From: Myxococcales bacterium
Lineage (GTDB): Bacteria; Myxococcota_A; Polyangia; Polyangiales; Polyangiaceae
Assembly (NCBI GenBank): GCA_016704525.1
Contig: JADIZX010000009.1
Span: forward strand, 170,625-234,445
Direction: 5' to 3'
DNA: 63,821 nt
Shown: piece after piece, positions 2,580-52,570 of the stretch
Layout of the letters: each line of letters starts with the position of its first letter
How positions within the stretch are numbered: the first letter of the stretch is position 1
Made by a program: the position numbers and the translations under genes
Notes under the pieces: model-generated
What the model saw: the letters and a program-made list of their open reading frames with translations, nothing else
Database searches by the model: none
Told to the model about the DNA's origin: nothing

Positions 2580-3080
2580 ATGGCAACGAAGAAGAAGGCG
2601 TCGAAGGCGACCCGCGCGACGAGGGCGCCCAAGGCGAGCCCCGCGCGGGCGAAAGAGAAGGTCTCCCCCGCCGCACCCCCGGGGGTCGCGCTCCGACTCA
2701 CGGCAGAGCTCGCGGCGCCGCCGGTGCGCGTCTTCGACGCGTGGATGAGCGGGGAAGGGCACGCCGCGTTCACCGGGGCGGGAGCGACCGTCGAGGCGCG
2801 GGTCGGCGGCCGGCACACGGCGTGGGACGGCTACATCGAGGGGACGACCGTCGAGCTCGCGCGTCCGGACCGCGTCGTCCAGACCTGGCGCACGAGCGAG
2901 TTCCCCGCGGCCGCCCCCGACTCGCGAATCGAGCTATCCTTTCGGCCGAGCGCGATCGGCACGGAGCTCACCCTCGTGCACACGGGCATTCCGCGCGGTC
3001 AGGGCGCGAAATACCGGCGAGGCTGGGAGGAGCACTACTTCTCGCTGATGCGCGCGCACTTCGGCCGCGGCTCTAGTTAG
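2580..3080 (+). CDS. SRPBCC/AHSA1-like domain protein with a Lys/Ala-rich N-terminal tail.
   Basis: GGAGG lies 6 nt before the ATG. The C-terminus ...LTLVHTGIPRGQGAKYRRGWEEHYFSLMRAHF resembles the Aha1/SRPBCC fold. The N-terminal 40 aa are KA-rich. Confidence 0.7.
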   Translation: MATKKKASKATRATRAPKASPARAKEKVSPAAPPGVALRLTAELAAPPVRVFDAWMSGEGHAAFTGAGATVEARVGGRHTAWDGYIEGTTVELARPDRVVQTWRTSEFPAAAPDSRIELSFRPSAIGTELTLVHTGIPRGQGAKYRRGWEEHYFSLMRAHFGRGSS

Positions 3081-3113
3081 TTAGTGGGTTGAGTCAGCTA
3101 CGTTAACGAGCCC

Positions 3114-7692: not shown

Positions 7693-8337
7693 GTGGTGCC
7701 CTGGTCCGAAGGCTCGGTTGGGGCGGGTGGACGGTTGAGCGACGACGAGGCCGCGAGCCTCCAGCGCGCGGCGAACGGTGACGCCGCCGCGTTCCGCGTG
7801 CTCTTCGCGCGGCACCGCGTCGACGTGCAGCGCCTCGTGTTTCGAATGGTGGGCGCGCGGCCCGACCTGGACGACATCGTCCAGGAGGTGTTCATCCAGG
7901 TGTACCGCAGCCTGCGTGACTTCCGCGGCCAGTCGAAGTTCTCGACATGGTTGCACCGGGTCACGGTGAACGTCGTGCTGATGCACCGCCGCGCTGCGCG
8001 GAGCCGCCCGACCTATACGGAGGAGGCGCCTGACGACCTCGCGCACGACGCGAAGCAGGTGCTCCCCGATGAGGCCGCGGCCCGTCACGAGCGGATGCGG
8101 GCCTTCGGCCGCCTGCTCGACCGCCTGGCCGACAAGAAGCGAATCGTCTTCGTGCTGCACGAGCTCGAAGGGAAGGCCCCGGCCGAGATCGCGGAGATTG
8201 TCGGCGCGCCGGTCCTGACCGTGCGGACGCGCCTCTTCTATGCGCGTCGCGAGCTCGAGGCGATGTGGCAGGACGAGCCCTCCTTGAAAGGGCTCGACGG
8301 GGGGTTCTCGCGTGCCTCGGCAGAGGAGGACTCATGA
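7693..8337 (+). CDS. ECF (sigma-70 family) RNA polymerase sigma factor.
   Basis: Region 2 motif DIVQEVFIQVYR...FSTWLHRVTVNVV and region 4 ...FVLHELEGKAPAEIAEIVGAPVLTVRTRL are present. The start is uncertain (GTG 7693 or TTG 7717), while the track ORF begins at 7558. Confidence 0.75.
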   Translation: MVPWSEGSVGAGGRLSDDEAASLQRAANGDAAAFRVLFARHRVDVQRLVFRMVGARPDLDDIVQEVFIQVYRSLRDFRGQSKFSTWLHRVTVNVVLMHRRAARSRPTYTEEAPDDLAHDAKQVLPDEAAARHERMRAFGRLLDRLADKKRIVFVLHELEGKAPAEIAEIVGAPVLTVRTRLFYARRELEAMWQDEPSLKGLDGGFSRASAEEDS

Positions 8338-8398: not shown

Positions 8399-9742
8399 AT
8401 GAAGACCAAAGACCCCACCACGACCGACCCTCCGACCGCAGTGGACCCGCCGGCGACGCCGGTCGCGGACGTGGAAGAGGAGGACGAGTCGCTCGCGCCC
8501 GACGAGCTCGACGCCCTCGACGGTCCGGCGCCGTTCGCCGCCCTCACGGCGCTCACCGAGGAGGCGAAGGGCGCCTTCCTCCCCGTCGAGCCCGACGACG
8601 CGGCGTGGGCAGCGATGGAGGAGCGCTTGGTCCTGCGCCTCGCCACCGAGCGGGCCCTCGCGCGTCGCTCGAGGCGCACGCAGCTCGTCGTCGGCGTGGC
8701 GTCGAGCCTCGCGCTCGCGGCTGGCGCGATCTTCCTCATTCGTCCGGCCGATCCGTTACCGCCCTCCGAGCCTGTGCCCACGCTCGCGAGCGTCGTGAAG
8801 GGCGGCCCGCGCGGCGCAGCCCTGTCGACCCCGCTCCCTGGCGGCGGCGATAGCTTCTTTCAGGGCGATCCGGTCGAGGTCACCGGCGGCCCTCTGGCGT
8901 TCGAGGTCCCGGGCGTGGGCTCGGCGATCGTCACCCCGAGGCGGGCGATCTGGGCGCTCGATCCTGCCGGCGAGGGGAGCGCGAAGGCGGTCCTCACGAA
9001 GGCCACGGCGACGTCCCTCGTCGTCGCGCTCGAGCGCGGCGCGCTCGAGGCCGACGTGACCCCCGAGCGCGACGGCGAGGCGTTCGCCGTCGACGTCACC
9101 GGTGGCGCCGGCACGACGCGCGTCGCCGTTCACGGCACCCACCTGCGTGTGGCTCGGAAGGGCGACCACGTGACGATCGATCTCTCGGAGGGGGTCGTCG
9201 TGGTGGGCGCAGCGGGCCCGAGCCGCACCACGGGCCTCGAGCTGCGCGCCCCGGCGCACCTCGAGCTCGAGGCTGGGTCCGCGCCCTCGGCCGCGCAGGT
9301 CACGCGTGAGGTGCGCCCCGCGTGGACGCTCGATCTCGTCGCGGCCGGCCAGCCCCCGGCGGGGCCCACGAGCCCGTCCACGCCTGTCGACCTCGGCCCC
9401 GACGCCAGCGCCATCCCCGACGCCACCACCACGAGACCCGGCCCGCCCCGGCCTGCCGGCCCCGGCGTCCCGGCTCCGGTCGCCCTCACCGAAGGGCGCG
9501 CCCTCGCGGCGATCCAGGTGGACCTCAAGCGTTGTGTGGCCCAGGCGGCGGTCCCTGGCGCGGTGCGGGTCTCGATCGACAGCGAACTGTCGATCGAGGT
9601 GCGCGCTGACGGCACGGTCGCCGGGACCCGCTTCACGCCGCCGCTCGCCCCGGCGATCCAGGAGTGCGCGTCCGGCGCGATCTTCGCGCGACGCATCGAG
9701 GGGCCACGCACCCTCATCGTCCCGGTGAAGTTCGAGTTCTAG
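8399..9742 (+). CDS. Anti-sigma factor with a single transmembrane helix and a periplasmic domain (FecR-like).
   Basis: Immediately follows the ECF sigma gene. The TM helix is LVVGVASSLALAAGAIFLI. ATG 8399 has a GGAG 9 nt upstream. ATG 8372 and GTG 8312 are alternative starts. Confidence 0.65.
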   Translation: MKTKDPTTTDPPTAVDPPATPVADVEEEDESLAPDELDALDGPAPFAALTALTEEAKGAFLPVEPDDAAWAAMEERLVLRLATERALARRSRRTQLVVGVASSLALAAGAIFLIRPADPLPPSEPVPTLASVVKGGPRGAALSTPLPGGGDSFFQGDPVEVTGGPLAFEVPGVGSAIVTPRRAIWALDPAGEGSAKAVLTKATATSLVVALERGALEADVTPERDGEAFAVDVTGGAGTTRVAVHGTHLRVARKGDHVTIDLSEGVVVVGAAGPSRTTGLELRAPAHLELEAGSAPSAAQVTREVRPAWTLDLVAAGQPPAGPTSPSTPVDLGPDASAIPDATTTRPGPPRPAGPGVPAPVALTEGRALAAIQVDLKRCVAQAAVPGAVRVSIDSELSIEVRADGTVAGTRFTPPLAPAIQECASGAIFARRIEGPRTLIVPVKFEF

Positions 9743-11272: not shown

Positions 11273-11431
11273 CTAGAGCGCCGAACCGCTTGATTCGGTC
11301 GGCCTTTCGCCGATTTACGTCGCCGTACTTCGTTGCTCCTCCTCGCCTAGCAGCAGTAGGACTCGTCGTCGCGCCCCGCACGGCTCGCAACTCGGCGAAA
11401 ATCCTCGGTCATCAAGCGGTTCGGCGCTCTA
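11270..11431. repeat. Intergenic element bounded by 22-bp perfect inverted repeats, CTAGAGCGCCGAACCGCTTGAT ... ATCAAGCGGTTCGGCGCTCTAG.
   Basis: Read directly from the sequence. The element begins at the TAG stop of the upstream gene. The interior contains CTAGCAGC. Confidence 0.6.
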
Positions 11432-11555
11432 GAAAGGGTCGCCTCGTCTCCTCCGAGCGAGAGGCCGTCGTCCACCCGACCTTGAAGGGCGTCCAGGGCC
11501 GCGCGGGCTCCGCCAGTTACGCGGTCCAGCCGTTCAAGCCTGGACGGGCGGTGGC

Positions 11556-19522: not shown

Positions 19523-19642
19523 ATGTATCTCGTCCTCTCGAAGAAGCCCCGTAAGACCAACCGCACCAAGACGAAGCGCTTTCGCGCCAAGCTGAAGGCG
19601 AAGGATCGCGGGCGTCGCGCGCGCATCTACCAGGGCGAGTAG
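19523..19642 (+). CDS. 39-aa highly basic micro-protein MYLVLSKKPRKTNRTKTKRFRAKLKAKDRGRRARIYQGE.
   Basis: Not in the ORF track. GGAG lies 8 nt upstream of the ATG. 34 of 39 codons end in G or C. The composition is ribosomal-protein-like. Confidence 0.45.
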   Translation: MYLVLSKKPRKTNRTKTKRFRAKLKAKDRGRRARIYQGE

Positions 19643-19689
19643 CCTTCCGCGCCGCCAAAGGCGCCGCGTCGAACTTCAGGGTGCTCGCT

Positions 19690-19800
19690 CTCCGGCGGGC
19701 GCCCTGTTTTCGTCTCCCCTCCCCCTCTCCCCAGTCCCTCACCCCTCTCCCTCTCCGTCTCCCTCTCCCTCTCCCCCTCTCCCTCTCCCTCTCGCGCGGG
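19690..19800. repeat. ~100-bp polypyrimidine (CT-rich) tract containing (CTCCCT)n.
   Basis: Read directly: ...cccctccccctctccccagtccctcacccctctccctctccgtctccctctccctctccccctctccctctccctctc. Confidence 0.7.
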
Positions 19801-20155
19801 AGCACCGAGCGTGGGTGGGGCCCTCGGCCGCGGGTGGGAGGATCCGCCTGTCCGAGGTCGTCGTTCTCGCGCGGCCACACGGACCACCCAGCCCCGGACC
19901 GCGATCACGCCCCGCTCATCGCGCGGAACGACGCCGAGTTTCGGAGCAACTGTCTTTCTGCCGGGGGTGAACGATTTTTTTCGGGGGGCGATTTGGGGCG
20001 TGGGACGGCTACCGCGCCGACGGGCGACTTCGCGCGGGGCGGCGCGTAGGCGGCTTGCTTGCTCGTCGTCGGGGTGCCCTGCCGGCGGACCCGGGACCCC
20101 GCCGCCCGAGCCCGAGGGCGAGAGGGAACCTGCGTTCGTTCCTTCGTCGCAGCCC

Positions 20156-20464
<309 letters not shown>

Positions 20465-20492
20465 TCAAAGATAGCTCCGGACCGAGATACAA

Positions 20493-20518
20493 GGGGCCCT
20501 CCCGCGGACGAGGGCCCC
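20493..20518 (-). terminator. Intrinsic-terminator-like hairpin (GGGGCCCTC-N8-GAGGGCCCC) downstream of the YebC operon.
   Basis: A perfect 9-bp GC stem. On the minus strand it is followed by the T-rich stretch TTGTATCT. Confidence 0.45.
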
Positions 20519-20608
20519 ACCCACGCGGGTGGCACCGCGCGCTCCCCCACCCGTCCCCGCGCACCGCGCGCACCTCCCCCCGCACCGCACCCCCGCGCCC
20601 CCAGCCCG

Positions 20609-21313
20609 CTACGCGAGCCCCACAAACAGGTTCTGCACGTCGTCGTCGTCGTCGAGCGCCGCGAGGAACGCCTCGACCTCGGCGCGCGCGGCGTCGTCGA
20701 GCGTGGCGGCGCTCACCGGGTTCTTCGGCCGCCACACGAGGGAGAACTTGGCGACGGAGAAGCCCCGCTCGGCGAGGGCCTTCGCCACGGCGTCGACCTC
20801 GGCCGGGCTCGTGTAGAAGCTCGTCGCGCCGTCTTCGGCGGGCTCGAGATCGTCCGCGCCGGCCTCGAGCGCGGCCTCCTCCGGGTCGGCGCCGGCGGGC
20901 GCTGTGGCCTCGACGTGGCCCACGCGCGCGAAGTCCCACGAGACGGCGCCCGAGGCCGCCAGCTGGCCTTTCTTGAACAACATCCGCACGTTCGCCGACG
21001 TTCGATTTTTGTTGTCGGTCAGGCACTCGACGATGACCGGCACCTGGTGTGGGGCGAACCCCTCGTACGTGACGCTCTCGTAGACGGCCGCTCCGTCGAG
21101 GAGCCCGGCGCCCTTCTTGATGGCGCGCTCGATGGTGTCGCGGGTCATCGACTGCTTACGCGCGGCCTCCACCGCCATGCGCAGGCTCGCGTTCGCCGCG
21201 GGATCGGCGCCGCCGCGCGCGGCGATGGCGATCTCCTTCGCCAGCTTGGTGAAGATCTTCCCCTTCGCGTTGGCGGCTGCCTCGCGATGCTTCTGCTTCC
21301 ACTGTGCGCCCAC
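20609..21313 (-). CDS. YebC/PmpR-family probable transcriptional regulator.
   Basis: ...[54 protein letters not shown]... is canonical YebC. A GTG start was inferred at 21311-21313. Confidence 0.8.
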
Positions 21314-28733: not shown

Positions 28734-29459
28734 ATGAGAACCGATTCCGCAAGAGCTCGCGCGGCGCTCATCACGTCAACCCTCGCGGCGGCGACCGCCA
28801 TGCTCGTCGGCGCGTGCGACGGCTTCGTGAAGATCGACGACCCGAGCGACGCGGGCGGCGGGGCCGACGCGCAGCTCCCGCCCCCGGGGGCCGACGCGAC
28901 CCCCACGGCGGACGTCGGCGCGCCCGACACGCTCCCGCCGCCGCCGGACGCGACCTCCGACACGCTCCCGCCGCCGCCGGACGCCGGACCCGACGCGACC
29001 CCCGACGCCGCGCCGGACGCCACCCCCGACGCGACCCCCGACGCGACCCCCGACGCCGCGCCGGACGCCACCCCCGACGCCGCGCCCCCGGCGTGCACGC
29101 GGAACCCGGTCGCCGGCCAACCCTGCGGGCCGGGCGCCACCGCGTGCGGCGAGGTCGACATCTGCTGCAATGGCGGGGACAAGTTCCGCTGCACGGCGGG
29201 GATGTGGGAGCGCTACCCCTCCGGTATCCTCTGCCTCTTTTGCGCCGCCACGCCCTGCGGCACGCAGCGCTGCCTCGGTAGCCAGTATTGCCTCGAGCGC
29301 GACGACGTCGGCGGCACCGTCCACACCTGCGTCGACTACCCAGCGGCCTGCTCCGACAGCTGGACGTGTGGCTGCGTCGCGCCGCTCGTGCCCTCGTGCC
29401 CCGGGGCCACGTGCAAGGCCACCCCAGCCCATCACCTCACCATCGCCTGCCCGCCCTGA
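28734..29459 (+). CDS. Lipoprotein with a (PDATPDA)n low-complexity linker and a Cys-rich C-terminal domain.
   Basis: Lipobox ...AMLVGAC. The in-frame tandem repeat PDATPDATPDATPDAAPDATPDAAP spans ~29000-29090. The C-terminal domain holds 16 Cys. Confidence 0.6.
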   Translation: MRTDSARARAALITSTLAAATAMLVGACDGFVKIDDPSDAGGGADAQLPPPGADATPTADVGAPDTLPPPPDATSDTLPPPPDAGPDATPDAAPDATPDATPDATPDAAPDATPDAAPPACTRNPVAGQPCGPGATACGEVDICCNGGDKFRCTAGMWERYPSGILCLFCAATPCGTQRCLGSQYCLERDDVGGTVHTCVDYPAACSDSWTCGCVAPLVPSCPGATCKATPAHHLTIACPP

Positions 29460-30841: not shown

Positions 30842-31747
30842 GTGCCGCGCGCCCCGCGCCCCGCGCCCGCCCCCAACGAACGGGAGACCCTATGCCTTCG
30901 TCGTCGTCGCCCGCGCCGCAGCATCTTCTCCGTCGACGTGGAGGACTGGTTCAACACGATGCGGAACGAGCCCAAGCCCTCGGACTGGGACACGATCCCC
31001 TCGCACGTGGAGAAGAACCTGCGAAGGTTCCTCGACCTGTTCGACGAGACGGGCACGAAGACCACGTGCTTCTTCCTCGGCTACGTCGGCCGGCGCTTCC
31101 CCGACCTCGTGAAGGAGACCGCGGCGCGGGGCCACGAGATCGCGTCGCACGGGTTCTTCCACAGCTGCATTTACGATCTCACCCGCGAGGCCTTCCGTAA
31201 GGACATCGCGGAGTCGAAGAAGGTCCTCGAGGACGCGGCGGGCAAGGCGGTCAAGGGCTACCGGGCGCCAGGCTTCTCCGTCGACCAGCGCTCGCCGTGG
31301 TTCTTCGAGGAGCTCGCCGCCGCCGGCTACGAGTACGACAGCTCGGTGTTCCCCGCGCCGCACCGCACGGGCGGCATGCGCACGAGCAAGCTCTTCCCCC
31401 ACGTGATGGACCTCGGGGGTGGCGCGAAGCTCACCGAGTTTCCCATCACGGCGGTCGACGTGCTCGGCAAGCCGATGTGCTTCTTCGGCGGCGGGTACCT
31501 GCGCCTGTTTCCGTACGAAGTGATCCGGCACATGAGCCGCCGCGTCCTCGACGAGGAGCGACCGGTTGTATATTACATTCACCCGCGCGAGATCGATCCG
31601 CACCACCCGCGCTCGCCGATGAAGCCCCTCGCGAAGTTCAGCGCCTACGTGAACCTCGCGTCCACCGAGCCGAAGGTGCGACAGCTCTTGCGCGACTTTC
31701 CGTCGACGAGCTTCGAGGGCTATCTGCGCGACCACCCGGTGTCGTAG
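30842..31747 (+). CDS. Polysaccharide deacetylase family protein (DUF3473-type).
   Basis: ...SIFSVDVEDWFN...TTCFFLGYVGRRFP...GHEIASHGFFH... A GTG start was inferred. An Arg-rich ~27-aa N-terminal extension makes the start uncertain. Confidence 0.75.
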   Translation: MPRAPRPAPAPNERETLCLRRRRPRRSIFSVDVEDWFNTMRNEPKPSDWDTIPSHVEKNLRRFLDLFDETGTKTTCFFLGYVGRRFPDLVKETAARGHEIASHGFFHSCIYDLTREAFRKDIAESKKVLEDAAGKAVKGYRAPGFSVDQRSPWFFEELAAAGYEYDSSVFPAPHRTGGMRTSKLFPHVMDLGGGAKLTEFPITAVDVLGKPMCFFGGGYLRLFPYEVIRHMSRRVLDEERPVVYYIHPREIDPHHPRSPMKPLAKFSAYVNLASTEPKVRQLLRDFPSTSFEGYLRDHPVS

Positions 31748-32501: not shown

Positions 32502-33749
32502 GTGACCACCGAGATCGTGTACCTGACCGACGTCGAGGGGCGCTGGGACAAGCTCGCGGACGCGCTGAGCGGTCACGTGGGGGTCAGCCTGCGCGGGGAC
32601 CACATCGAGGTCGCCGAGGACGCGACCCTCGTCTTTGGGGGCGACGCGACCGATCGCGGGAGCGCGGGGCGGCGCGTGATGCGGGCGCTGCTGGACGCCA
32701 AGATGCGTCACCCAAGCCGCGTGGCGCTCCTCGCGGGGAATCGCGATCTGAACAAGCTGCGCCTGCGAGTCGAGCTCTGCGGCAGGCCGCCCGAGCGCGC
32801 GCCTACGGAGGTGCGCCAGGGGCCGCGGGCCGAGCTCCTCCGGTGGCTCTTCACGAACACGATGGGCGCGCGCGAAGCGTTCGACAACCGGGCGATCGAG
32901 CTCGACGTCACCGGCGCCGGCGCCGACGACGCGGTCGTGGGCTCGTTCCTCGACGACGTGGGTCGCGACGGTCTGACGACCCGTTACCTCGCGCAATGCC
33001 AGCTCGGCGTTCGGTTCGACGAGACCCTGTTCGTGCACGGCGGCGTCACCTCCGAGAGCCTGGGTCACGTCCCCGGTCTTCGTTCGAGCGCGAGCTCGCG
33101 CGCACGCGAGAGCGTCGACGAATGGCTCGAGGCCCTGAACCGCTGGTACGCCGAGCAGCTCGACGCCTACGCGGGCGCGCGCGACCTCGAGAGCGGCGCC
33201 TACGAGCCTATCGTCGCGTACCAGGCGCCCGTTCCCGGCACGCGACGGCACCAAGCGAGCGTCGTGTATGGCCGCCTCGCCGACGCGCACAACAACCCCG
33301 AGCTGCCGCCGGCGGACGTGCGCGCGGCGCTGCGGCGGAGCGGCGTCTCTCGGCTCGTGGTGGGGCACACGCCGACCGGCGACGTGCCCGTGGTGCTGCG
33401 CGCGGAGGCCGAGCGCTTCGAGCTCGTGTGCGCCGACAACTCGTACGGGCGCCTGGAGCGCGGGCCCCGCGTGGTGGTGCGCGGCGACGAGCTCACTATG
33501 GAGGGGAGCGCGCGGCTCGACGGCGGCGACGAGGCGCGCGCCCTGACGAGGCTCTCGCTCGCGGAGCGCAGTGGGCCGATCGGGCTACGCGATCGCAGCA
33601 CGGGACACCTCGTGGGCGGGCGCCTCGCGGGCGACCAGGTGTACCTCTACCGCTCGGCCGGGGGCTTCGTGGTCGAACAGCTCGCGCAGGCGACCTCGGA
33701 GGCGGCGGGGCGACCGCTGGCGGAGCCGGCCGAGCGCACGCCGGGCTAG
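32502..33749 (+). CDS. Metallophosphoesterase (calcineurin-like).
   Basis: Motifs GDATDRG, GNRD, GHTP. GTG start. Confidence 0.8.
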   Translation: MTTEIVYLTDVEGRWDKLADALSGHVGVSLRGDHIEVAEDATLVFGGDATDRGSAGRRVMRALLDAKMRHPSRVALLAGNRDLNKLRLRVELCGRPPERAPTEVRQGPRAELLRWLFTNTMGAREAFDNRAIELDVTGAGADDAVVGSFLDDVGRDGLTTRYLAQCQLGVRFDETLFVHGGVTSESLGHVPGLRSSASSRARESVDEWLEALNRWYAEQLDAYAGARDLESGAYEPIVAYQAPVPGTRRHQASVVYGRLADAHNNPELPPADVRAALRRSGVSRLVVGHTPTGDVPVVLRAEAERFELVCADNSYGRLERGPRVVVRGDELTMEGSARLDGGDEARALTRLSLAERSGPIGLRDRSTGHLVGGRLAGDQVYLYRSAGGFVVEQLAQATSEAAGRPLAEPAERTPG

Positions 33750-33942
33750 CAGCCCGTTGATTGACTCCCGTCGGCCCGTCGCCGCCGCATCCCGACCGCG
33801 GTCGTTGCGATCCTGCGGTGCGTGCTCACCTAGAAACGCCCACCTGGAACACGCTCCGCGCGCTCCTCGGATCGCGCCTTGGCGGGCCGGGCGCGGACGA
33901 CGCCGGGCCTCGGTCCGTAAATCCACAGGCTGCTAGCTAGAC
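33747..33942. repeat. Intergenic element with imperfect terminal inverted repeats, TAGCAGCCCGTTGAT ... ATCCACAGGCTGCTAGCTAG.
   Basis: Read directly. It starts on the TAG stop of the phosphoesterase gene. The same TAGCAGCCCGTTGAT 15-mer also follows the stop of the protease gene at 43265. Confidence 0.5.
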
Positions 33943-33957
33943 CTCCCCGCGTGACGA

Positions 33958-34353
33958 GCGGCTAGTCCCCTGGAAGCGTGATCCCTTCCAGAAGTCGCGC
34001 GGCTCGGCCTTTCGCCACAAGGGAGCGAGGGGGTGTCCCGTTTTCGGCGGCGGTGGGAGGATACTCATGTTCGAGGGTCGGCGTTCTCGCGCGGTCACAC
34101 CCGAAACCACTGTCCCCTGAGCGCAAAGCGCCGCCTCCACCGCGCGGAACGACGTCCGAGTTGAGGACGGGCCCGCCGCCGCCGAAAACGGGGCACCCCC
34201 TCGCTCCTCGGAGTGACACCGAAGACCCGACTTCTGATACGAACCACGACTCCAGGGGACTAGTCTCCTGGAAGCGTGATCCCTTCCAGAAGTCGCGCGG
34301 CTCGGCCTTTCGCCACAAGGGAGCGAGGGGGTGTCCCGTTTTCGGCGGCGTGA
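33958..34353. repeat. MITE-like palindromic element, copy 1: a ~93-bp unit, a ~120-bp core, the inverted unit, then an extra direct unit.
   Basis: The unit GACTAGTCCCCTGGA...GAGCGAGGGGGTGYCCCGTTTTCGGCGGCGG occurs at 33961-34053, inverted at 34171-34265, and again at 34258-34350. The track ORFs here (33962..34318 -, 33978..34622 +) translate identically to ORFs at 52.3 kb. Confidence 0.75.
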
Positions 34354-41358: not shown

Positions 41359-42066
41359 TCAGTGCGCCGGGTAGCTCGGAGCCGCGGGCGCGAGGCGAGG
41401 ATCGAGGGTGACCTTCACCGTCGAGTCGGCGAGCGCGAGATCGATCGAGGCACACTGCTTGGCCTCCACGCCGACCCCCTCGGCGTGGTCCGCGAGCTTC
41501 CCGAGGGCGGTGTACTCTCGATCCGCCGCCTCGGCGTCTCGCCGCGCGAGGGCGTCGCGGATCGCGGGCGCCCGCGCATCGGCGGCGCGGATCGCCACGT
41601 TGAGCTGCGTGAGCTTCTCGGTGAGGCACGCGGTGACCACGAGGTCGCGATCACGGCGGGCGCGCTGGAGGCGCCTGCGGACGAGCGTCGACTGAGCTCG
41701 CATGCGGTCGAGGCGACGCTGCGACTCGGTGAGCTGCTCCTCCGGCGTGAGGCGTGTCTTCTTGTGCGCCGCCTCGGCTGTGGCTGTGACCACGGGTGTC
41801 GCCTCCGCGGCCTGCGGGCGAGGTGCGACGGTGGCCGGCGGTGTGGGCCGGGCAGCCGGCTCGGCCGGCGGCGCGGGGCTTGGCGGGGCAGGCGGGGCAG
41901 GCGGGGCAGGCGGGGCAGGCCGGGCAGGCGGGGAAGGCTGGGAAGGCTGGGAAGGCGTGGTCGCGACGTGCGCGGCGGACGCGGGCGGCGACGCGAGCGC
42001 CAGCGCCCCGTGTCCCACGAGCACGGCGGCGACCAGCACCCCGAGGAGGAGGCTCTTCGTCTTCAT
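41359..42066 (-). CDS. Secreted Pro-rich, coiled-coil protein (hypothetical).
   Basis: Start MKTKSLLLGVLVAAVLVGHGALALA (signal peptide). A (PAPPAPP)n region is encoded by a (GGCGGGGCA)n repeat. The rest is a helical C-terminal domain. Confidence 0.5.
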   Translation of the reverse strand: MKTKSLLLGVLVAAVLVGHGALALASPPASAAHVATTPSQPSQPSPPARPAPPAPPAPPAPPSPAPPAEPAARPTPPATVAPRPQAAEATPVVTATAEAAHKKTRLTPEEQLTESQRRLDRMRAQSTLVRRRLQRARRDRDLVVTACLTEKLTQLNVAIRAADARAPAIRDALARRDAEAADREYTALGKLADHAEGVGVEAKQCASIDLALADSTVKVTLDPRLAPAAPSYPAH

Positions 42067-42175: not shown

Positions 42176-43267
42176 GTGAGGTCCACCAACCTGGTCGCGT
42201 GCGCCGCTCTGCCCGTCGCGTCCGCCGCGCTCGCCGCGCTCGCCGCGCTCGCCGCGTGTGGTGGCCCGCGCGAGCACACGAGCACGGGCGAGGGCTCGAG
42301 CGCGATCCAGGGAGGCACCGAGGACGACGTCCACACCTTCGCGGTGGCCGTGATCATGCCGGAGTCCACCTGCTCGGGGACGCTCATCGCGCCGAACCTG
42401 GTGCTCACCGCGCGCCACTGCGTCGCCGACAGCGGCAACAGCGACGAGGTCGACTGCGCGCGCGACCGGTTCTCCGCGCCCGCGCCGGCGAGCCGCTTCT
42501 CCGTGACCACCGCGAAGGTCGTTCGCGGCAGCACGGCGCGATACCGCGTGGCGAAGATCGTCGTGCCCTCGGAGTCCAAGTTCTGCGGCAACGACATCGC
42601 CCTGCTGCAGCTCACCGACAACGTTCCTGCCTCGGAGGCGACGCCGGCCACCCCGGCGCTCGACCCGCCGATGACCTCGCACCCCCTCTACGGCACCACG
42701 GTGGCGACGCTGGGCTACGGCATTTCGGGCCCCAAGAAGACCGACGACGGCACGCGGAGGCTGCGTGAGGACGTCCCCATCCAGTGCACCCCGGGCGATC
42801 CCGAGAAGAGCTGCCGCCTCTCGGACTTCGACATCACCCCCACCGAGTTCGTCGCCGGCGACGGCCTGTGCTCGGGCGACTCCGGCGGCAGCGCGTTCGA
42901 CCAAGAGAGCTTCACGCGCGGGCGCCCCGTCACGTTCGGCGTGCTCTCGCGAGCCAGCGAGACCGGCTTCAAGTGCATCGATGCCGTATTCACCCGCACC
43001 GACGCGTTCGCGGGCCTGCTCGTCGCGGCCGCGACCGAGGCCGCGGAACAGGGCGGCTATCCGCTGCCCGTGTGGGCAGGCGGGGCGGGCAGCGCCGACG
43101 CGGGGGCCGAGGGCGGGCCCGCGGCTCCCCCCACGGTGGAGGCCACGAGCCCACCGGGAGCGGCCTGCGCGACCGGCTCAGCGGGTCGAGGCCCCTTGGG
43201 CGCCGCCCCCGTCACGCTGGTCGCGGTCCTCGCTTGCGTCGCCGCGGCGTGGAGGCGACGGCGCTAG
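42176..43267 (+). CDS. Trypsin-like (S1 family) serine protease lipoprotein with a MYXO-CTERM-like C-terminal sorting tail.
   Basis: LTARHC (His), GDSGG (Ser), lipobox LAALAAC, and the tail ...GAACATGSAG...PVTLVAVLACVAAAWRRRR. A GTG start at 42176 was inferred. Confidence 0.75.
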   Translation: MRSTNLVACAALPVASAALAALAALAACGGPREHTSTGEGSSAIQGGTEDDVHTFAVAVIMPESTCSGTLIAPNLVLTARHCVADSGNSDEVDCARDRFSAPAPASRFSVTTAKVVRGSTARYRVAKIVVPSESKFCGNDIALLQLTDNVPASEATPATPALDPPMTSHPLYGTTVATLGYGISGPKKTDDGTRRLREDVPIQCTPGDPEKSCRLSDFDITPTEFVAGDGLCSGDSGGSAFDQESFTRGRPVTFGVLSRASETGFKCIDAVFTRTDAFAGLLVAAATEAAEQGGYPLPVWAGGAGSADAGAEGGPAAPPTVEATSPPGAACATGSAGRGPLGAAPVTLVAVLACVAAAWRRRR

Positions 43268-43346
43268 CAGCCCGTTGATCTGCGGACCGAGACCTGTCGT
43301 CGTCCGCGCCCGACCCGCCGAGGCGCGAACCGATGAGCCCTGCCCA
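43265..43346. repeat. Short element with inverted termini, TAGCAGCCCGTTGAT ... CCCAGGCTGCTAC.
   Basis: Shares its first 15 nt with the 33747 element and, like it, begins on the TAG stop of the preceding gene. Confidence 0.4.
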
Positions 43347-52249: not shown

Positions 52250-52570
52250 CGCTGGCTTGGACTAGTCCCCTGGAGTCGTGGCTCGTATCAGAAGTCCGGT
52301 CTTCGGTGTCATGCCGAGGAGCGAGGGGGTGCCCCGTTTTCGGCGGCGGCGGGCCCGTCCTCAACTCGGACGTCGTTCCGCGCGGTGGAGGCGGCGCTTT
52401 GCGCTCAGGGGACAGCGGTTTCGGGTGTGACCGCGCGAGAACGCCGACCCTCGAACATGAGTATCCTCCCACCGCCGCCGAAAACGGGACACCCCCTCGC
52501 TCCCTTGTGGCGAAAGGCCGAGCCGCGCGACTTCTGGAAGGGATCACGCTTCCAGGGGACTAGCTGGTTC
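52250..52570. repeat. MITE-like palindromic element, copy 2 (inverted relative to copy 1).
   Basis: The sequence is the reverse complement of 33961-34262, sharing the GACTAGTCCCCTGGA and GAGCGAGGGGGTGCCCCGTTTTCGGCGGCGG unit ends. It abuts the TAG stop of the phosphodiesterase gene. Confidence 0.75.

Follow-up and report, generated by a model that had tools for sequence, protein, structure and literature searches.

Genes and repeats in the window

The window, i.e., the whole stretch of 63,821 nucleotides that was analysed, lies on contig JADIZX010000009.1 (positions 170,625 to 234,445) of the Myxococcales assembly GCA_016704525.1 and has a G+C content of 71.7%. A phosphoesterase gene in the window is followed by a short element (F2), by a full copy of a palindromic repeat that we named F1, and by a truncated second copy of F1; another full copy lies between convergent SDR and GDPD genes (Table 1). 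The protein encoded by the phosphoesterase gene is identical in three metagenome-assembled genomes (GCA_963852875.1, GCA_016720545.1 and GCA_035433285.1) and is also encoded in several wastewater assemblies. Among the matches listed, four of the six contigs with this gene stop at or just after it, in or before the repeats, as is usual when short reads from a repeat with many copies are assembled.

Table 1. Coordinates of F1, of its relatives and of the other CTAG-bounded families; positions refer to the window unless a comparison sequence (L number) is named
Feature	Position	Strand	Details
F1, family			302 bp; tip after CTAG TCCCCTGGA
F1, full copy 1	33962-34263	+	302 bp including both flanking CTAGs; 2 of 302 positions differ from the family consensus
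F1, copy 1, A arm	33962-34052	+	91 nt
F1, copy 1, core	34053-34176	+	124 nt
F1, copy 1, inverted B arm	34177-34263	+	87 nt
F1, truncated second copy	34260-34350	+	A arm only (91 nt); 99% identity to 33962-34052
F1, full copy 2	52262-52563	-	between convergent SDR and GDPD genes
Target CTAG at copy 2 A end	52560-52563		duplicate at 52262-52265
F2, family	33746-33936 (191 bp); L014 108-280		173-191 bp; tip after CTAG CAGCCCGTTGAT
F2, partial inverted copy	43264-43338		
F3, family	11273-11432; L047 7673-7825; L056 153-312		153-160 bp; perfect 16-nt TIR AGCGCCGAACCGCTTG
F4, family	L057 2222-2355; also flank in L044		134 bp; tip after CTAG TCTCCTGTCACAGA
Diverged relative of F1 inner A arm and core	19782-19945	+	~75% identity; without the CTAG-bearing outer arms

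The sequence-only reading of this DNA had described a palindromic element of about 300 bp in two inverted copies. The element and its two copies stand, with limits that are shifted: copy 2 spans 302 bp (Table 1) and not 52250-52570. Copy 2 had also been taken for the exact reverse complement of copy 1, which is incorrect, since the two differ by five mismatches over 302 positions (98.3% identity). The additional direct unit reported for copy 1 is indeed present, and it is a truncated second copy located at copy 1's own terminal CTAG, ending exactly at the boundary between arm and core and having CTAG 34260-34263 in common with copy 1. Metagenome contig L032 provides an independent instance of this junction, with the same downstream flank.

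Without the flanking CTAGs, F1 is 298 bp long and non-coding. The tip CTAGTCCCCTGGA (CTAG followed by the bases given for F1 in Table 1) is a perfect 13-nt inverted repeat. In the arms, which are 87-91 nt long, positions 1-13 and 28-36 are identical between A and B, the inner ~36 nt are near-identical (94% complementary; conserved inner block of 31-36 nt), and the middles are unrelated and not complementary. Five occurrences of a 30-nt inner motif were counted in the window, and none in 100 shuffles. The core, of ~120 nt, is oriented: A arms always lead into its GTGGGAGGATAC side and B arms always lead into its GGCGGGCCCGTC side. Because each arm type always joins its own core side, F1 is one fixed, oriented unit. 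The two unit variants, said to share both ends and to differ in internal stretches that are each a small hairpin, do have shared ends and differing middles; small hairpins appear in the predicted folds, yet neither the arms nor the core have a more stable fold than shuffled sequences.

Identical spurious ORFs (MIPSRSRAARPF...) had been noticed on both strands and were found there again. The ORFs in F1 are only the stop-free frames typical of high-G+C DNA, and a search with the 96-aa F1 translation against 5.8 billion protein sequences found no protein. A small ORF of 17 codons in the core (MFEGRRSRAVTPETTVP), placed behind a GGAGG Shine-Dalgarno-like motif, was considered as a gene and rejected: its variation falls 5/2/1 on codon positions 1/2/3, with no excess at the third position, and its ATG is missing in the diverged relative at 19.8 kb.

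Several repeats of other kinds were seen in the window. Between 58549 and 62756, a unit of ~1450 bp is present three times in tandem (82-100% identical in parts), and these units look like paralogous minus-strand genes in tandem, with Gly-rich stretches. Coding-type tandem repeats were found at 28977-29096, with a period of 12 bp (CCCGACGCGACC-like), and at 41868-41960, with a period of 9 bp (GGGCAGGCG-like), each with 7+ units.

The number of tandem F1 units at the copy-1 locus was 1.3 in the window, 1.6 in L001 and 2.3 in L002 (GCA_016720545.1). Inside the F1 array, both L001 (11944-11975) and L002 (11841-11853) have poly-G runs and homopolymer indels, artefacts of assembly or of polishing. 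Because the errors fall exactly there, we do not trust the difference in unit number as biology. Separately, L002 has a gap at 9039-9041 relative to the window and L001, both of which have a further 231 bp there (31311-31541 of the window). The gap falls within a polysaccharide deacetylase gene, whose L002 version is annotated as truncated, and reflects a true deletion or else a faulty assembly.

Dispersal and age of the F1 family

To find further copies, we scanned JGI metagenomes with the 24-mer GAGGGGGTGNCCCGTTTTCGGCGG, which is present in both F1 arms. This inner-arm 24-mer matched 51 metagenome contigs, 38 of them from a single assembly (Ga0073904), and almost every match was no more than about 150 nt away from the end of its contig, in keeping with a repeat on which short-read assembly breaks off. 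No pair among the 51 contigs had more than 400 bp of common flank, and only L032 maps to the window, as an orthologue of the copy-1 site. With the window included, we counted 31 A ends and 24 B ends; the number of F1 copies per genome is read from such contig ends, and the contigs may pool several strains.

The copies of F1 are 94-100% identical to copy 1. Their deviation from the consensus amounts to 0.3-2.8% of cells per segment and to about 1% overall, a figure that is biased towards identity in the inner blocks, where the scan demanded an exact match. The divergence of ~1% from the consensus indicates that the spread of F1 is recent.

Outside these metagenomes, two exact-pattern scans, one with the inner-arm 24-mer and one with an outer-arm pattern, gave zero matches each in 185,579 species-representative genomes, and F1 had no match in PLSDB plasmids or in viral contigs. 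Full-text literature searches turned up no description of a myxobacterial MITE. The blank results of the literature, plasmid and viral-contig searches agree with the earlier impression that F1 is not a described myxobacterial repeat.

Sharp ends and an empty insertion site

A CTAG adjoins 52 of the 54 F1 ends that have a full flank; the similarity between copies stops there, with variable sequence beginning at the first base beyond the CTAG. The same holds within the window, where the flanks of copies 1 and 2 are unrelated and the likeness stops exactly at the CTAGs. In 43 of the 54 ends a purine precedes the CTAG, so the target looks like RCTAGY.

The copy-2 site was found empty in L062, a Logan contig from SRR5580759 whose GDPD protein is 100% identical to that of the window. 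L058 and L061, with 89% and 74% GDPD orthologues, likewise lack F1, and the convergent GDPD/SDR gene pair is kept in all three. The empty allele of L062 reads ...GTGAGAACCAG-CTAG-TCCAAGCCAGCG..., with a single CTAG, and the filled allele of the window reads ...GTGAGAACCAG-CTAG-[298 bp]-CTAG-TCCAAGCCAGCG...; at closer range, the empty site is ...GAGAACCAG CTAG TCCAAGCC... and the filled site is ...CAG CTAG [298 bp] CTAG TCCAAGCC.... A target-site duplication was looked for and is thus seen as one CTAG in L062 versus two around F1 in the window. The comparison of the alleles shows copy 2 as a precise insertion of 302 bp with duplication of CTAG, or of the TA inside it. Strains that encode an identical flanking protein are polymorphic for this insertion. 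The junctions of copy 2 are equally compatible with a 4-bp duplication of CTAG, with a 2-bp duplication of TA (element ends G...C) and with a blunt insertion at CT^AG.

The target and gene stops

The tetranucleotide CTAG is four-fold under-represented in the window (39 observed vs 164 expected from base composition). We then asked how F1 ends lie relative to genes with a rough gene-end test, in which ORFs of at least 100 codons with GC3 >0.85 and GC2 <0.65 were taken as coding-like. In 13 of 51 F1 ends, the target CTAG provides the TAG with which a coding-like ORF terminates, and a gene end is at most 60 nt away in 22 of the 51. The gene stops adjoin A ends (8) and B ends (5) alike, which gives no orientation bias.

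Both copies in the window had been described as intergenic and as placed after a TAG stop, which our analysis bears out. The terminal CTAG of copy 2 (52560-52563) supplies the TAG stop of the GDPD gene on the minus strand. Copy 1 follows the phosphoesterase gene via F2, the TAG stop of that gene (33747-33749) being within CTAG 33746-33749, where the 191-bp F2 element starts. The pattern of repeats directly after a stop codon arises because the target CTAG is the neighbour's TAG stop in those 13 of 51 ends, and duplication of the target leaves the upstream gene with its stop codon. Insertions after stop codons should, by this reasoning, be nearly neutral.

Other CTAG-bounded families and nesting

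We searched 428 kb of sequence for CTAG-bounded inverted-repeat pairs that are 0.06-3.5 kb apart, and MITEs were all that was found. Four CTAG-bounded MITE families were recognised, i.e., F1 and at least three others (Table 1). The TIR of F2 is CTAG-CAGCC(C/T)GT(T/G)GAT. The tip of F4, CTAGTCTCCTG, resembles the F1 tip CTAGTC(C/T)CCTG, and beyond this tip (CTAGTCYCCTG), shared by F1 and F4 only, the four families show no relation. From the similar tips, F1 and F4 may possibly be moved by the same transposase.

Elements of different families are in contact in several sequences. F2 directly adjoins F1 copies in L007 and L014, and F1 is inserted at the terminal CTAG of F3 in L039, L047 and L056. 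A single CTAG is common to the adjacent elements in F1-F2 of L014, F1-F3 of L056 and F1-F4 of L057. In the window, the second TIR element that the sequence-only reading had placed before copy 1 is real, and it is a separate MITE family, F2, using the same CTAG target. The nest at 33746-34350, consisting of F2, full F1 and truncated F1, exists because each insertion makes two new CTAGs.

Microsatellites of the (CTAA)n / (TTAG)n type were also observed directly beside CTAG, in L037 (about 8040-8085) and in the window (3073-3090). The L037 run ends at an inserted copy of F1.

Nature of F1 and alternative explanations

F1 is small, has no transposase gene, carries TIRs, is flanked by a target duplication and occurs in dispersed copies. 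With its many copies in unrelated flanks, the unduplicated flanks in the window, and an empty site that reveals the target duplication, the earlier suggestion of a non-autonomous transposable element is upheld: F1 is very probably a MITE, i.e., a non-coding DNA transposon with TIRs. Arms as long as those of F1 are uncommon among bacterial MITEs.

We propose that F1 is moved in trans, by cut-and-paste, with a transposase whose gene lies at another place in the genome. By analogy, this enzyme would be of the DDE type and would recognise the terminal inverted repeats. Integration would take place at a palindromic 5'-(R)CTAG(Y)-3', with a duplication that comprises 4 bp (CTAG) or only the 2 bp in the centre (TA). 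As CTAG is rare at 72% G+C and often occurs in the context of a TAG stop, F1 copies would tend to land just after genes. The duplication would restore the stop codon, making such insertions nearly neutral. Every insertion would in turn create two new CTAGs, at which more F1 copies and other CTAG-specific MITEs could pile up.

We considered whether F1 is a composite, because its inner module also exists without the CTAG arms and F1 is perhaps chimeric. The diverged relative of the inner A arm and core lies about 210 nt downstream of an IS110-family transposase fragment (Pfam PF02371, E = 8e-7), consisting of ~95 C-terminal codons on the minus strand at about 20155-20440. The 30-bp inner inverted repeat of the relative at 19809-19838 is paired with 20497-20526, closing a stretch of 718 bp which contains the fragment. 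Conceivably, the inner module (36-bp inner repeat and ~114-nt core) could be the guide-RNA-bearing non-coding end of an IS110/IS1111 element, or its preferred target, that was captured between CTAG-specific arms and is now spread by a second, unrelated transposase. Identity to the nearest other transposases is only 73-76%, and every match listed is itself a fragment of at most 179 aa, a close intact relative not being among them. The one relative that was compared (L063) has only coding sequence in common, and an Rfam search of 19600-20650 returned nothing. The link of the F1 core to IS110 is unsupported, and we consider such a chimera improbable. A CTCCCT-type microsatellite was noted just upstream of the relative, at about 19720-19795.

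Single-stranded transposition offers another way to account for the constant CTAG. A REP/REPIN-like element, or a PATE derived from IS200/IS605, would be moved as ssDNA by a Y1 HUH transposase (RAYT/TnpA) and would insert beside a fixed CTAG without a true duplication; CTAG is constant at the F1 junctions and could stand at both ends if one of the two belonged to the element itself. A constant junction tetranucleotide and subterminal hairpins are features of IS200/IS605 ends, and F1 has a subterminal hairpin, whose 7-bp stem (CTGGAAG/CTTCCAG) begins 9 nt inside the A end. The B-arm hairpin, however, is unlike the A-arm hairpin, and F1, at 302 bp, is much larger than a REP or a REPIN. IS200/IS605 ends are asymmetric and without terminal inverted repeats, whereas F1 has tips that are perfect 13-nt inverted repeats and two arms of which one is an inverted copy of the other. 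These perfect inverted tips make an HUH-type mechanism unlikely, and the filled site has two CTAGs against one at the empty site. A non-systematic look at the flanking genes brought no RAYT or TnpA gene to notice. Taken together, we hold this origin to be very improbable.

The palindromic structure also raises the possibility, which had been put forward beside the transposon, that F1 is a structured non-coding RNA gene family (sRNA or cis-regulatory hairpin) in which the long hairpin is functional. F1 copies are intergenic, and the 406-nt region folds far better than shuffles on both strands (z = -7.45 and -6.94). The arms and core taken singly, however, fold no better than shuffles (z = -0.56, -0.85 and +0.93), and all of the excess stability is due to base pairing between the two arms, whose central parts are not complementary. 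In Rfam, nothing in the whole window reached a gathering score, and the sole match with E<1 was MIR8622, a plant miRNA hairpin (45.6 bits vs a gathering score of 197). No promoter-like or terminator-like consensus site lies within F1, for which reason F1 as an intrinsic terminator or promoter was likewise rejected. The gene stops beside A and B ends again show no orientation bias against genes, and filled/empty polymorphism with target duplication is a signature of transposition and not of a gene family. The RNA interpretation is not borne out, and we regard it as extremely improbable.

That the pair of F1 copies is merely ordinary intergenic DNA which underwent a segmental duplication or inversion, as the presence of only two full copies in the window, inverted and 18 kb apart, might suggest, and as two copies alone with duplicated flanks would imply, is hardly credible given that the similarity ends exactly at the CTAGs, that the window flanks are unrelated and not duplicated, that more than 50 further copies (on 51 contigs) have unrelated flanks, and that an empty site exists.

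Implications

F1 is a recently active MITE family, apparently not described before, of a well-known kind of element. For annotation, it accounts for the spurious ORFs, for contig breaks in many assemblies of an activated-sludge Myxococcales lineage and for the unreliable repeat number at the copy-1 locus. F1 adds a currently mobile MITE family to a group for which the literature searched contained no account of a MITE. A stop codon inside the palindromic target would steer insertions to the 3' ends of genes, with the duplication restoring the stop, and the CTAG made at each end would let several MITE families nest together. The understanding of MITEs in general is unchanged by F1.

Comparison with known systems

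An autonomous partner would show as two CTAG-bounded inverted repeats separated by 0.6-3.5 kb, and the 428 kb searched contained no such pair; nor was the F1 terminal motif found in other sequences within these 428 kb. By analogy, the transposase of F1 may be IS630-like or IS5-like, as two precedents fit. Like MITEs derived from IS630/Tc1-mariner elements, F1 is short and non-coding, has TIRs and would be moved in trans. Some Tc1-type elements have two-site arms, which the outer and inner conserved blocks of F1 recall. IS630 is cited in PMC2170065 as inserting at the TA within 5'-CTAG-3' (Tenzen and Ohtsubo, 1991). In line with IS630 as cited there, F1 is always in CTAG, and its filled site, C-TA-[G...C]-TA-G, is what would be expected of a TA duplication. 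Unlike the case of IS630-derived MITEs, no IS630-type transposase with F1 ends is present in the 428 kb searched.

The second precedent is MITEPsy1 of Pseudomonas syringae, an element of 100 nt with 18-nt TIRs that is derived from ISPsy2 and targets CTAG or YTAA with a 4-nt duplication (PMC3189936). The filled F1 site is equally readable in this manner, as CTAG-[298 bp]-CTAG. In contrast to MITEPsy1, F1 is three times longer and has arms of 87-91 nt, and under the 4-bp reading its tip is TCCCCTGG (TCCCC...) as against GGAAGG in MITEPsy1. MITEs derived from the IS5 family are expected to show a duplication of 4 bp (CTAG or YTAR) and TIR tips with G as the first base; a 4-bp duplication of CTAG is compatible with the F1 junctions, and under the 2-bp reading the tip of F1 becomes GTCCCC. 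The 428 kb searched contain no IS5-type partner for F1, which differs in this respect from IS5-derived MITEs.

In its distribution, F1 resembles the Correia elements of Neisseria, ERIC and RUP: it is present as dozens of near-identical intergenic copies, it would form a long hairpin in read-through transcripts, and the set of filled sites varies between strains. Correia elements measure 100-155 bp and have 26-bp TIRs as well as promoter and IHF sites; F1, unlike them, is without a promoter-like site. Nevertheless, it is plausible that F1 could have effects on neighbouring transcripts comparable to those of Correia-type MITEs.
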